From the NCBI GenBank assembly GCA_963422665.1, contig OY730441.1, positions 715,411-779,410 on the forward strand: a stretch of 64,000 bases of DNA. Reading direction: 5' to 3'. The position numbers and the translations under genes were made by a program. This stretch comes from Alphaproteobacteria bacterium. Its GTDB lineage: Bacteria > Pseudomonadota > Alphaproteobacteria > Bin95. Shown piece by piece: positions 3,951 through 26,431 of the stretch. The stretch's first letter is position 1; every line of letters begins with the position of its first letter. Under the pieces are notes generated by a model. The model made no database searches. It was not told the origin of the DNA and saw nothing but the letters and a program-made list of their open reading frames with translations.

Positions 3951-4328
3951 TCAGGCGGCGGGACGGCGGCCGGCGATCGCTTCCCGGAGGCCCTCGAGCA
4001 GGCCCTCCAGCCGCGCCTGCCCGTGTTCGACCGCCCGCAGCCGCGCGTCGAGCCCATCCATGCGCTTGTTGGTCTCGTCGATGCGCGCGCCGAGGCTTTT
4101 GTTGACCTCGGCGATGCGCTTGTTGGTCTCGTCGATGCGCGCGCCGAGGCTTTTGTCGACCTCGGCGATGCGCTTGTTGGTCTCGTCGATGCGCGCGCCG
4201 AGGCTTTTGTCGATCTCGGCGATGCGCGCGCCGAGGCGGTCTTCCATCCTGGACATACCGCGCAACAGCAGGGCCGCCACGGCGATGAGAAGGGCGGGCG
4301 TGATCCAGGCGGCGAGTTCTGCGGGCAT
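3951..4328 (-). CDS. small membrane-anchored coiled-coil repeat protein (paralog A of a 5-member family)
   Basis: 125 aa. It has a short N-terminus, one hydrophobic helix (WITPALLIAVAALLL), then 18-aa tandem repeats (IDETNKRIAEVDKSLGAR x3) and a C-terminus LEGLLEGLREAIAGRRPAA. A ggaagg RBS precedes the ATG. Confidence 0.6.
   Translation of the reverse strand: MPAELAAWITPALLIAVAALLLRGMSRMEDRLGARIAEIDKSLGARIDETNKRIAEVDKSLGARIDETNKRIAEVNKSLGARIDETNKRMDGLDARLRAVEHGQARLEGLLEGLREAIAGRRPAA
4061..4243. repeat. in-frame tandem repeat, 54-bp unit x about 3.3 copies, inside paralog A
   Basis: Near-identical consecutive copies of gatgcgcttgttggtctcgtcgatgcgcgcgccgaggcttttgt(t/c)gacctcggc. Each encodes an 18-aa coiled-coil repeat. 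This is not CRISPR (no spacers, and it is coding). Confidence 0.85.
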
Positions 4329-4411
4329 CGGGGCCTTCCTTTCCGGGCCACCATGCGGCCGGCGGGCCTCCGTTGGCAAGGCCGGCGGCGGCGGACGAAG
4401 GACTACGGAAC

Positions 4412-4499
4412 GATCTCCGCGTCGGGCTCCCCGGCGGCGAGCGCGTTCGTCCAGGCGAGGCAGAGGCCGCGGGAGCGGCAGCTTCCCCACGCCCGGCGC
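4412..4499. repeat. orphan direct copy (about 88 bp, about 92% identical) of the 3' end of the RM gene at 4978..5063
   Basis: gatctccgcgtcgggctccccggcggcgagcgcgttcgtccaggcgaggcagaggccgcgggagcggcagcttccccacgcccggcgc matches gatcccggcgtcgggctcgccggcggcgagcgcgttcgtccaggcgaggcagaggtcgcgggagcggtagcctccccacgcccggcgc. The pair brackets small gene B. Confidence 0.85.
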
Positions 4500-4584
4500 G
4501 AGCCCCGGGCGGCCTTCCGGACTTGCGAATTCCCTGGTTGTCTGCATGATCGGGTTGCATATTTCCCGACAGCCGGGAGGGCGG

Positions 4585-4947
4585 ATGACCGACACGCCGG
4601 GGCCGATACGGACCCTCGAGGACAGCGGCCTCGAACGGCGGGCGGCGGATGCCATCGCGTCCGCGCTGGAGGAGCAGCGCCGGTCGTCCGGCGGGGTCCC
4701 GCCCTGGGCGTTGATCCTGGCGGCCGGCCTTGTGGCCGGCGCAATCGGCTTCCTGGCGACGATCACCATCGAAAACCGCGAACGCCTGGTCCGGTTGGAA
4801 GAGGGACAGGTCCGGCTGGAAGAGGAACAGCGGGAGCTCGGGCGGCGGATCGAGGCCCTTGAGGAGGGGCAGCAGGAGATCCTGCGGCAGGTCGGGGCAC
4901 TGGAAGAGGGGCAGCAGGAGATCCTGCGCCTGCTTCGCCAGCAATAG
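4585..4947 (+). CDS. small membrane-anchored coiled-coil repeat protein (paralog B)
   Basis: 120 aa. It has a hydrophobic helix (WALILAAGLVAGAIGFLATITI) followed by LVRLEEGQVRLEEEQRELGRRIEALEEGQQEILRQVGALEEGQQEILRLLRQQ. A 33-bp unit is duplicated. An RBS gggagggcgg precedes the ATG. Confidence 0.6.
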   Translation: MTDTPGPIRTLEDSGLERRAADAIASALEEQRRSSGGVPPWALILAAGLVAGAIGFLATITIENRERLVRLEEGQVRLEEEQRELGRRIEALEEGQQEILRQVGALEEGQQEILRLLRQQ

Positions 4948-4968
4948 CGCGGAAAGCGGCCCGCCTGT

Positions 4969-24337: not shown

Positions 24338-24396
24338 GGTTATCGCGTCAGCGGGTTGCGCAGCGGCGCACGATTACGAAGGCCCGCGCGCTTCGG

Positions 24397-25011
24397 ATGA
24401 ACGCAGGAGACCTGCTTCCGGAATCCCGGCTCTGCCTTGCCGGGCGCGAACCTTTCGCAAGGGGCGGTTTCCGGCATTGCTATGTCCACCCCGAAGACTC
24501 CGATTTGTGCGTGAAGGTGCCTGCGCGCCCCGATGACGCGCGCTGCCATGCCGAGCAGCTAAGAGACCTCCTGGACAGCCGGCGGTTGAGGAAATGCGGC
24601 CCGAATGCGGTATTCGACCGTCTCTCCCTCGTGGAAGGGGTCGTCGCGACCGACCTCGGCGCCGGCATCGTCTCGAGATTGTGCCGCGACGCGGACGGTC
24701 GAATATCCGGGAACCTCGCCGAACTGATCCGGTCGCGCGGCCTGACGCCTGCGCTGGTCGAGGCAATGGACGAGTTGAAGGCGTGGCTGCGCGACCGGCG
24801 TCTGCTGACCCGGGATACCGGGCCTCACAATATCGTCGCCATGCGCCGGGGCGAGGAAGAATGGAAGTTGATGATCGTCGAAGGCTGGATCCACCGCAGA
24901 TACGGTTGGCTGGCCCGGCGCAGCCGCTTCGTCACTGACCGCATGATCGACCGCCAATTGCGCAAATTCGACCGGCGCGTCGCAAAGCTGGCCGAACGGA
25001 AGCCGGCCTGA
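24397..25011 (+). CDS. YrbL-like (PhoP-regulatory-network, kinase-fold) protein
   Basis: LAGREPFARGGFRHCYVHPEDSDLCVKV matches the YrbL N-terminal signature (G.ER.CY.HP...C.K). Confidence 0.55.
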   Translation: MNAGDLLPESRLCLAGREPFARGGFRHCYVHPEDSDLCVKVPARPDDARCHAEQLRDLLDSRRLRKCGPNAVFDRLSLVEGVVATDLGAGIVSRLCRDADGRISGNLAELIRSRGLTPALVEAMDELKAWLRDRRLLTRDTGPHNIVAMRRGEEEWKLMIVEGWIHRRYGWLARRSRFVTDRMIDRQLRKFDRRVAKLAERKPA

Positions 25012-25348
25012 CATGCGCCGGCCTCCCGCAACTCGGCCGGGCAAACCGGCCGACAGCCGACCCGGCGACCATTACGGCATGACTTGGCGGTTCAGCCGGC
25101 GCCGGCGGAACGGGCGGTAACGGAGCCGCGGCGAGGGCGCGTCTGTTATTGAATCGGTCGGTTCATTTGCCGCCCGGCCGGAATCTGCGCGCGCAGCTCC
25201 CCTGTCCGCCGCGAGGGCGGGCGCCTCCCGAAAAACAGCCTTTCCAGCGGCCGAACGGCCTTCCGGCTCAAGTCATGCTCTCACACTCTCATGCGCCCGA
25301 AACGGGAATATGGTCATGGCGAATACGGATTTCAATCCCATTCGGGGA

Positions 25349-25762
25349 TTAATCGCCGCCGGGGGACGGGCCGGCCCCCGGAACGGGCCGATTTCGGATC
25401 CGGAGGCGGCGGCGGCCCCTTTTCCGCTTGACGCCGTGGCGTTTGAGGAAGCGCTGGAGCACGCCGTAGCCGAAGTCGAGGCCGCGCGCCCCCAGCGCTG
25501 CCTGCAACGCCCTGACGCTCAGGTCCGGCCTCTCTTCCATAAGGCCGAGAATCGTGTCGCGCTCCGCCTCGACCCGCCCGGAGCGGAAGTCGCCGCCAAG
25601 CGGCAGCGGCTGCACATGGCCCTGCCCGCGCTCCAATTTGCGCCAGTTGGAGATGACGCCGATGCTGACATCGAACAGCCGCGCGGCCTCGCGAAAGGTC
25701 ATCCCCTTGCGTATCGCCGCCAGAACCCGGACCCGCAACTCGACAGGAAGCACTTTGGGCAT
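25349..25762 (-). mobile_element. IS630-family transposase fragment, N-terminal HTH portion only
   Basis: 138 aa (MPKVLPVELRVRVLAAIRKGMTFREAARLFDVSIGVISNWRK...). It lacks the DDE catalytic domain. It sits at the distal end of the glycosyltransferase cluster. Confidence 0.7.
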
Positions 25763-26098
25763 ATCCGCCGGACCTCCCTCGCCGACGAATGCCCGTATGG
25801 CACAAATAAAGAACAAATGAAACCAGCCCGGACCGCGGTGGCGCTCCAGTTTGACATTATCGGGCAGGCGCCAACGAGCAAGGGGCCGGAGCGACGAAAA
25901 GGCGGGAACCAGCGCATGAATTCGGCGGTCCGGATCCATGTGGTCAATCTGGAGGAGGAGACGGAGCGGATGGCCGCCATGACGAGGCGGCTTGTGGCCT
26001 CGACTTGCCGTTTCAGCGCTTCCCCGCCTGGCGCGGCCGGCGGGTCCCGGATGTGCTACAAGGGGCACACTGGCGGGATCGGAAGGACCGGAGAGGCC

Positions 26099-26431
26099 AT
26101 GACGCCGGAGATGATGACGACGCTTGCCGCCGCGGCGGGCATGTTCGTGGCCTTGGGTGGGTTGATCGTCAGCCTGTTCCTCTGGCTGCGCTCCGACATG
26201 CACCGCATGCGCGACGAACTGAAGAGCGATATCGGAGCAGTCGAGACGAGGCTGCGCAGCGAAATCAAGGTCGTGGACGGCAAAGTGGACGCTCTCGGCG
26301 AATGCGTCACGCGGCTCGGCGAACGCGTCACGCAGCTCGGCGAACGGATGGCGCGGGTCGAGGGAAAACTGGAGTTCCTCAAGGACTTCATTACCCGGCG
26401 GAACGACCTGTCGGGCGCGCCGGCCGAATAG
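26099..26431 (+). CDS. small membrane-anchored coiled-coil repeat protein (paralog D, intact)
   Basis: 110 aa (MTPEMMTTLAAAAGMFVALGGLIVSLFLWLRSDMHRMRDEL...LGECVTRLGERVTQLGERMARVEGKLEFLKDFITRRNDLSGAPAE). It contains 21-bp tandem units. It has the same upstream element as C. Confidence 0.6.
   Translation: MTPEMMTTLAAAAGMFVALGGLIVSLFLWLRSDMHRMRDELKSDIGAVETRLRSEIKVVDGKVDALGECVTRLGERVTQLGERMARVEGKLEFLKDFITRRNDLSGAPAE

Follow-up and report, generated by a model that had tools for sequence, protein, structure and literature searches.

A 64,000-nucleotide stretch of contig OY730441.1 (positions 715,411 to 779,410) from an alphaproteobacterial genome assembly, referred to here as the window, contains five small genes, A to E, each of which encodes a protein with one hydrophobic helix and a charged, repetitive body. 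A preliminary description of this DNA treated them as five paralogues of a family without a name, which raises the question of whether they are related at all and what such proteins could be doing. Genes A, C, D and E belong to a large, widespread and cleanly defined family that is unnamed and not described in the literature or databases searched, while B belongs to a family of its own. The A/C/D/E proteins are read here, with a probability of roughly 0.55, as bitopic inner-membrane tethers or spacers in which an evolvable coiled-coil stalk carries a conserved docking tip. All five genes are present at the positions first assigned to them:

3951..4328, minus strand: gene A, 125 amino acids (aa), intact, LEGLLEGLREAI-GRRPAA subtype
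4585..4947, plus strand: gene B, 120 aa, separate analogous family, C-terminus ...EGQQEILRLLRQQ
21124..21470, plus strand: gene C, EGKLEFL...PAPAE subtype, a pseudogene here
21611..22011, plus strand: gene E, LEGLLEGLREAI subtype, damaged
26099..26431, plus strand: gene D, 110 aa, intact, EGKLEFL...APAE subtype

Family membership was established directly by sequence comparison. In BLASTP searches, C and D align over their full length with 70% identity (E 7e-53), in agreement with the value first reported, A and E share 39% identity over 79 aa (E 1e-9), C and D each match E at about 1e-8, and A matches D at 3e-4; no significant match was obtained for B against C, D or E. A hidden Markov model (HMM) of the family C-terminus, run on the six-frame translation of the whole window, recovered A, C, D and E only and missed B. 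These four also share all features of the family, namely an acidic N-tail of 2-5 residues, a transmembrane (TM) helix, an Arg or Lys, 7/11-residue repeats and the C-terminal motif, and B departs from the definition at the N-tail and at the C-terminal motif. The view of a five-member family with very short N-termini therefore holds for four of the genes and has to be given up for B, which carries a 38-residue N-domain. The division into two C-terminal subtypes was borne out, with A and E of the LEGLLEGLREAI type and C and D of the EGKLEFL...APAE type. At least two further members, P0074 (92 aa) and P0035 (65 aa), are found outside the window on the same 4.59-Mb contig.

The family of gene B comprises 32 hits with a conserved N-domain, a TM helix, a variable number of LEEGQ-type heptads and the C-terminus EGQQEILRLLRRQ. 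In B itself the N-domain consists of 38 hydrophilic residues (MTDTxxLIRTLEDSGLxRxAAxAIASALEEQRR) and is followed by the TM helix at residues 42-60 and then by the heptads. When the two families are compared profile against profile, no more than 21 columns align, with RxxALEEGQ in the B family opposite RLRAVEHGQ. This makes B an analogue and at most a very distant relative.

Two of the reading frames need correction. Gene C is a pseudogene because a TT insertion at 21399-21400 shifts its frame, as comparison with the intact orthologue of 114 aa in L001, a syntenic contig, shows. Gene E does not end at about 22011 as had been supposed: a 1-nt deletion at 21998/21999 alters its last five codons, so that ...AGRRAA and stop becomes ...AGPGRHDG..., and removal of the stop lets the open reading frame (ORF) of 410 codons read to 22843 into a broken glycosyltransferase family 2 (GT2) gene. 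The intact E orthologue has 151 aa and ends in ...REAIAGRRAA before its stop.

At a G+C content of about 69%, long spurious ORFs are common in the window, and between 3 and 27.5 kb there are 136 ORFs of 60 aa or more. That A to E are chance low-complexity ORFs of the kind that DNA of 70% G+C yields in numbers is nevertheless next to impossible. The G+C content at third codon positions is 0.80-0.90 and that at second positions 0.42-0.50, a coding-like pattern which matches other genes in the genome. The ratio of non-synonymous to synonymous substitution rates (dN/dS) lies between 0.17 and 0.33 in the family genes, and hundreds of homologues preserve the termini across phyla while their synonymous sites vary. 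This conservation pattern refutes the chance reading. Scans of the region with Rfam models and for tRNAs found no RNA genes.

Each of the five proteins has a single strongly hydrophobic segment of 19 residues and a charged stalk in which Asp, Glu, Lys and Arg make up 32-46%. The hydrophobic periodicity of A to D is 3.47-3.59 (3.55-3.59 for A, C and D alone), a spacing between those of heptads and hendecads; for E the highest peak is at 2.62, and coiled-coil character is not shown for E by this measure. Tandem Repeats Finder detects in-frame DNA repeats of 42 and 21 nt in B, 33 nt in C and 33 nt in E. The stalk of A is made of 18-residue (7+11) units, encoded by a 54-nt repeat present 3.1 times at 4060-4227. 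Protein A is modelled by AlphaFold2 as one helix over residues 2-118 at a predicted local distance difference test score (pLDDT) of 90, and its stalk would reach about 15 nm past the membrane. Gene D contains a 21-nt repeat at 26294-26346, and its close relative P0002 is shorter by one heptad.

The architecture can be read directly from the homologues. With D as the query 35 relatives were found and with A 729, and a profile search of 1.84 billion representative proteins returned 996 clusters at E<=1e-3, nearly all of 60-170 aa. The few long hits were considered as possible domain fusions and rejected, as they are autotransporter adhesins, tail fibres and eukaryotic coiled coils in which the repeats alone match. 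In every lineage the layout is constant: Met and 1-4 residues ending in Asp or Glu, the TM helix, Arg or Lys, the repeat stalk, and a C-terminal helix. The stalk units are lineage-specific and of 7, 11, 14 or 18 residues in variable number. The C-terminal helix of about 25 residues, the tip, is conserved as A-x-[LVM]-E-G-x-[LV]-[DE]-x-[LF]-x-x-x-I-x-x-R and occurs in two flavours, VEHGQAKLEGLLEGLREAIxGRRAA and ARVEGKLEFLExYITRRNEPPPAPAE, with mixed forms such as P0190. In an alignment of 48 sequences the Gly of the EG pair is the sole invariant residue, and, counted from it, Ala-4, Glu-1 and Ile+9 hardly vary. In the common subtype the tip helix has a Leu face and a ridge of small residues, EGxxEGxxEA. 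The tip is taken to be the functional end of the protein, which could either dock a broadly conserved cytoplasmic partner or self-associate.

The family genes are under purifying selection. In addition to the overall dN/dS values, gene A gives 0.29 against its counterpart in L093, and D is identical to its L001 orthologue; for the pseudogene C the comparison with L001 yields 1.0 from few sites. Among 101 copies of the twelve-residue core LEGLLEGLREAI, the coding DNA occurs in 72 distinct versions with a mean third-position identity of 0.50, which means that the peptide and not the DNA is conserved. The C-terminus as a DNA element, or as the trace of a recent sweep, was therefore rejected, since the synonymous sites are scrambled.

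By contrast with the fixed ends, the length of the stalk is hypervariable. Between close relatives the difference is 7 or 11 residues or a combination of the two, as in series of 74, 85 and 96 aa or of 92, 103 and 114 aa. A further case is provided by L005 and L006, two 12.3-kb segments of the same contig (CBDBGH010000003.1) in a metagenome-assembled genome (MAG), which are 99.97% identical and have as their sole structural difference a 66-nt (2 x 11 aa) indel in the family gene. These segments could represent a recent segmental duplication or collapsed strain heterogeneity; on either origin the repeat number changes very fast, and faster than the DNA that flanks it. Several copies per genome are frequent, and tandem copies can be graded in length (85, 96, 103 and 114 aa in L028; 104, 122 and 133 aa in L041). 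The B family behaves in the same way. At L092:8736-13634, nine tandem B-family paralogues of 97-128 aa, each with its own promoter-like upstream block of about 77 nt, stand beside an Eco57I-type restriction-modification (RM) gene in a position syntenic to the single B of the window. The remark that five dispersed copies are unusual was thus an understatement, as multi-copy sets and tandem arrays are general to both families.

The orientation of the proteins in the membrane is predicted from their charges. According to the positive-inside rule, basic residues flank a membrane helix on its cytoplasmic side. The N-tails of 85 proteins encoded at the genome loci hold 4 Lys or Arg against 88 Asp or Glu, and the first charged residue past the TM helix is Arg or Lys in 85 of 85. 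An acidic N-tail followed by a basic residue after the helix predicts an N-out/C-in topology with the stalk in the cytoplasm, which is opposite to that of i-spanins, TolA and TonB. Under the opposite topology, N-in/C-out, the stalk would bridge the periplasm in the manner of an i-spanin, TolA or an Lpp-type ruler, the tip would touch the outer membrane or peptidoglycan, and length variation would track the width of the envelope. The family does occur in diderm phyla, its small size and N-terminal TM helix with a coiled-coil body recall the Rz-type i-spanins, and PHROG profiles give weak matches to an Rz-like spanin (E 0.017-0.03). This orientation is quite unlikely all the same. The charge bias is the reverse of that of type II anchors, and members are present in Dehalococcoidia (L074, L076), a group generally described as lacking an outer membrane.

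The i-spanin likeness itself, suggested in the preliminary description on grounds of size and topology, could not be upheld. Rz-type i-spanins have an o-spanin partner, a place in a lysis cassette and phage homologues. No lipobox-like motif indicative of an o-spanin was found in the alternative frames of any of the five genes or in the 200 nt that follow them, and no holin, endolysin or other phage gene was found near family genes in the window or in the neighbour census. Three scans of IMG/VR, with A, B and C/D types as queries, returned no relatives, nor did searches of GenBank phages or of 72,556 plasmids.

To obtain a model of how the A/C/D/E proteins could work, their predicted orientation has to be combined with the fixed and the variable parts of the sequence. 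Each protein would be close to one long alpha-helix, composed of a periplasmic acidic N-tail, the TM helix, the Arg or Lys, a cytoplasmic coiled-coil stalk and the tip. The length of the stalk (about 5-25 nm) would shift fast by in-frame gain and loss of repeat units, with anchor and tip held constant by purifying selection. The stalks probably oligomerise and would hold the tip, which may be a docking surface for a broadly conserved cytoplasmic partner, at a set, evolvable distance from the membrane; no dedicated partner gene would be needed. Copy number would rise through tandem duplication and through cassette-like insertion of a promoter with its ORF beside the ends of other genes. The B family represents an independent, analogous design with the same expansion behaviour. 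Of the functions first proposed, we infer that tethering is the most reasonable guess.

Proteins of comparable build are known. ATP synthase subunit b and YhcB/ZapG (DUF1043) are N-out/C-in bitopic coiled-coil proteins in which, as in the family, a very short N-tail that is uncharged or acidic precedes a single TM helix, and a basic residue then leads into a long helix in the cytoplasm; they measure 100-160 aa, their distal end docks a partner, and the helix of subunit b has hendecad character. The family differs from them in having no sequence or Pfam match to them, in lying outside atp or other operons, and in its multiple copies, hypervariable repeat number and own C-terminal motif. Subunit b was rejected as an identity for the family, given that there is no ATP-synt_B Pfam match and no atp genes are found among the neighbours.

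No named family fits. Searches of Pfam, NCBIfam, PHROGs and PADLOC with the five proteins and 48 family members, and a search of PDB profiles turned up nothing beyond coiled-coil noise below threshold. The best Pfam scores reach 19-24 bits against gathering cut-offs of 33-40 bits, with hits below threshold to DUF7310 in 17 of the 48 members and to XhlA in 4 of the 48. Like the family, DUF1640 (CCDC90-like), XhlA, DUF7310, DUF948 and DUF1664 have 11-residue D-h-x-x-h-+-x-E-h repeats beside one TM helix, which in DUF1640 and XhlA is C-terminal, and none of them has the EG-tip motif. Membership in any of these was rejected as all scores fall under the cut-offs. The best NCBIfam match is the stalk of Ata, a trimeric autotransporter adhesin (TAA), where the similarity is in the repeats only. 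TAAs have a signal peptide and a YadA β-barrel anchor and are devoid of the family's N-terminal anchor and conserved tip. The family proteins are single helices of 65-170 aa with no signal peptide, head, neck or YadA anchor, and were for this reason not assigned to the TAAs.

Two further likenesses concern the repeats. Mycoplasma Vlp/Vsa variable lipoproteins form clusters of paralogues with a constant anchor and a repeat region of fast-changing size. They behave like the family in this respect, with no homology implied, and differ from it in being extracellular, lipid-anchored, phase-variable and without a conserved distal tip. The Pyrobaculum PaREP15/COG1340 proteins have repeats that are 55-60% identical to the A-type repeat words (SLGARIDETNKRIDE). 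As a side observation, several of them (P0069, P0075, P0122 and others) contain nearly the same repeat words, SLSARIDETNKRIDE, and have no TM anchor or tip. This likeness may reflect convergence, distant homology or transfer.

A dedicated partner could be expected to leave a trace among neighbouring genes. BLAST clustering of all ORFs at 85 loci revealed no universal neighbour, and a Pfam census of 91 immediate neighbours gave 94 Pfam families, mostly of ordinary metabolic enzymes, none of which occurs more than three times or is enriched. The search for conserved neighbouring genes that had been called for thus came out negative, and the accessory-DNA setting seen in the window does not extend to the family at large. 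One 85-aa member is 100% identical on 23 contigs read, and 8 places shown have the same neighbours. A C39-peptidase ABC exporter was considered as a partner and rejected, being confined to one gammaproteobacterial genome and otherwise explained by generic ABC similarity. In that MAG, family genes at L026 lie near the C39-peptidase ABC exporter and an HlyD-like gene, and those at L023 near an ABC exporter of unassigned type and a 1,440-aa protein, arrangements not seen in other lineages.

Several points weigh against the tether reading. A conserved tip with no conserved neighbour could equally fit self-association, re-insertion of the small-xxx-small helix (EGxxEGxxEA) into the membrane, or a toxic or defence role. 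The predicted N-out/C-in topology has a single basis, the positive-inside rule. Multi-copy, cassette-like behaviour is unusual for housekeeping scaffolds, and two of the four copies in the window are broken, which implies that the genes are dispensable in this genome.

The cassette-like behaviour is best seen from the surroundings of B and C. The relevant features of the window, including the upstream element that was correctly reported as common to C and D, are:

4404..4499, no strand: left direct repeat of the B cassette, a decayed second copy of the type IIG RM gene's 3' end
4970..5065, no strand: right direct repeat of the B cassette, where the Eco57I-type RM gene has its functional 3' end
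4969-9156, minus strand: Eco57I-type RM gene (type IIG)
19890-21041: glycosyltransferase family 4 (GT4) gene
20937..21031, no strand: left direct repeat of the C cassette, the 3' end of the GT4 gene
21070..21088, plus strand: upstream element CCCGGATGTGCTACAAGGG of C, 35 nt 5' of the C ATG
21470..21535, no strand: right direct repeat of the C cassette, with an internal collapse of about 30 nt
26046..26064, plus strand: upstream element CCCGGATGTGCTACAAGGG of D, 34 nt 5' of the D ATG

Gene B lies between 96-nt direct repeats (4404-4499 and 4970-5065) of 92% identity. In L093:1-1400, which corresponds to 3900-5130 of the window, the 3' end of an RM gene, apparently a remnant, is directly followed by an A-type gene and B is absent, so that this locus looks like an empty site for B. 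Gene C is placed between copies of the last 95 nt or so of the GT4 gene, the right one of which begins at the final base of the C stop codon (21468-21470). Duplicated flanks are found elsewhere as well: the last 60-84 nt of guaA (L021, L045, L051), about 45 nt from the end of an AMP-binding enzyme gene (L014), and 16-24 nt at the start codon of a tsaE-like gene (L009, L015-L017, L019). At 14 of 63 solitary loci the local alignment of upstream with downstream sequence exceeds the 99th percentile of mismatched controls, where about 0.6 would be expected, and some of these 14 are local repeats like repetitive extragenic palindromes rather than gene-end duplications. At L050:5720-6170 and L082:5840-6200, both from Vicinamibacterales MAGs, the family gene is bracketed by an element of about 30 nt, GGCGAGGTGAAGTGGGCGGCNCGNACGTTC, with one additional upstream copy in L050; this repeat may be element-borne and not a duplicated target.

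The inserted unit is compact, with 27-100 nt upstream that include a promoter-like CTTG.. or TGTGCWA element, the ORF, and 0-34 nt behind it, which gives a cassette of promoter and ORF of about 440-500 bp. The element CCCGGATGTGCTACAAGGG is probably an extended -10-type promoter, and a sigma-70-like CTTG..-N17 pattern in alphaproteobacterial copies is a plausible candidate on sequence grounds. EcfG, sigma-32 and sigma-54 promoter patterns were absent upstream of the copies, save for one sigma-54-type match in L063. With regard to features of miniature inverted-repeat transposable elements or integrons, the ends of the B cassette match by eye as inverted repeats at 13 of 21 positions, and the flanking duplications are long and variable (16-96 bp). 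No integrase, transposase or recombinase is consistently nearby among the 91 immediate neighbours. The duplications could have arisen through a transposition-like event in which the staggered cuts lay far apart, through illegitimate recombination facilitated by homology, with the conserved neighbour gene as the anchor, or through template switching during replication.

These insertions are a reason to consider the genes as selfish or conflict cassettes, that is, toxins, abortive-infection or superinfection-exclusion proteins or orphan immunity proteins that spread as mini-cassettes. Such a role would account for the multi-copy, patchy distribution across phyla and for the same subtypes in different phyla, and it agrees with the 16-96-bp duplications of neighbour gene ends, with the apparent empty site in L093, with tandem arrays of which some are interleaved with insertion sequence (IS) elements (L041), and with the position of A and B next to a type IIG RM gene, repeated in L092 and L093. 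On the other hand, PADLOC matches are no better than coiled-coil noise, neither phages nor plasmids carry the genes, and no antitoxin or other second gene accompanies them. Some copies are stably syntenic among metabolic genes, such as the 85-aa member described above, and what varies is length and not a specificity-determining sequence. A conflict role is for these reasons considered unlikely. The related and speculative idea that both families are cargo of an undescribed minimal mobile cassette of about 440-500 bp, which lands at gene ends, leaves target duplications of 16-96 bp and has spread over at least seven lineages within sponge microbiomes, with stalk length as a rapidly tunable selected trait, is likewise given only an outside chance.

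The mention of sponges derives from the distribution of the A/C/D/E family, whose phyletic spread was observed directly. When one genome per GTDB species was scanned, 307 relatives came to light. Of these 307, the best 80 all come from MAGs and cover Alpha- and Gammaproteobacteria, Acidobacteriota (Vicinamibacterales, Terriglobia), Spirochaetia, Latescibacterota, Binatia and Dehalococcoidia. The closest relatives are from jk18x bins, which are MAGs of Ircinia sponge symbionts (PMC9531527). The MAG names COS4_bin and ROBB21-1 suggest a coral-reef sponge study (PMC8163846), a link which could not be verified.

From this it could be argued that the proteins are symbiosis factors whose tip is recognised by, or acts on, the sponge host. 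A role of this kind would account for the sharing of the family across unrelated symbiont phyla, and the all-MAG origin of the best 80 of 307 loci, the Ircinia relatives, sample names of the sponge-study type and the absence from plasmids are in line with it. An inner-membrane anchor with no signal peptide and a predicted cytoplasmic stalk would, on the contrary, keep the host out of reach, and the source of the UUID-named MAGs is unverified. Host interaction is accordingly held to be very unlikely, and with the habitat of these MAGs unverified, specificity for sponges is a lead and not a result. The family motif was not found in the searchable literature, and the sponge-symbiont literature searched contains no description of such a family.

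If the tether reading is correct, about 1,000 clusters of "hypothetical proteins" in uncultured and partly sponge-associated bacteria would become one definable family. Its design, in which anchor and tip are fixed and the spacer between them can evolve, would provide a natural series of molecular rulers for coiled-coil and membrane biology. For symbiosis research it would be a candidate shared trait, with the invariant tip peptide as a handle on a conserved partner. The signature of flanking duplications may indicate an unrecognised route by which small genes enter bacterial chromosomes one at a time.

Within the window, A and B are located between an oxidoreductase gene and the Eco57I-type RM gene, C and E lie 3' of the GT4 gene at the edge of a glycosyltransferase patch, and D is upstream of a TRAP transporter gene. 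A conserved chvG-hprK-PTS-ahcY block separates the two groups of copies. The GT2 gene 3' of E (22008-22869) is broken, with an 81-aa N-terminal piece that stops at 22253 and the remainder in other frames; this damage and the frameshifts in C and E give the small glycosyltransferase patch the look of one in decay. A 458-aa ORF at 9732-11108 on the minus strand, with a strong coding signal (third-position G+C content 0.91) and no Pfam match, lies between the RM gene region and PEPCK. Gene C starts 82 nt past the GT4 gene in the window and 81 nt past it in L001, and at L002:4418-10258 an 85-aa member starts 81 nt past an imuA-imuB-dnaE2 mutagenesis cassette; the equal spacing of about 81 nt in L002 and at the GT4 gene is probably due to chance. 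The proteins of the B family end in ...QEILRLLRRQ (4915-4947 in B), which resembles the conserved C-terminal peptide of FtsZ (...EIPAFLRRQ), a likeness that may be coincidental.

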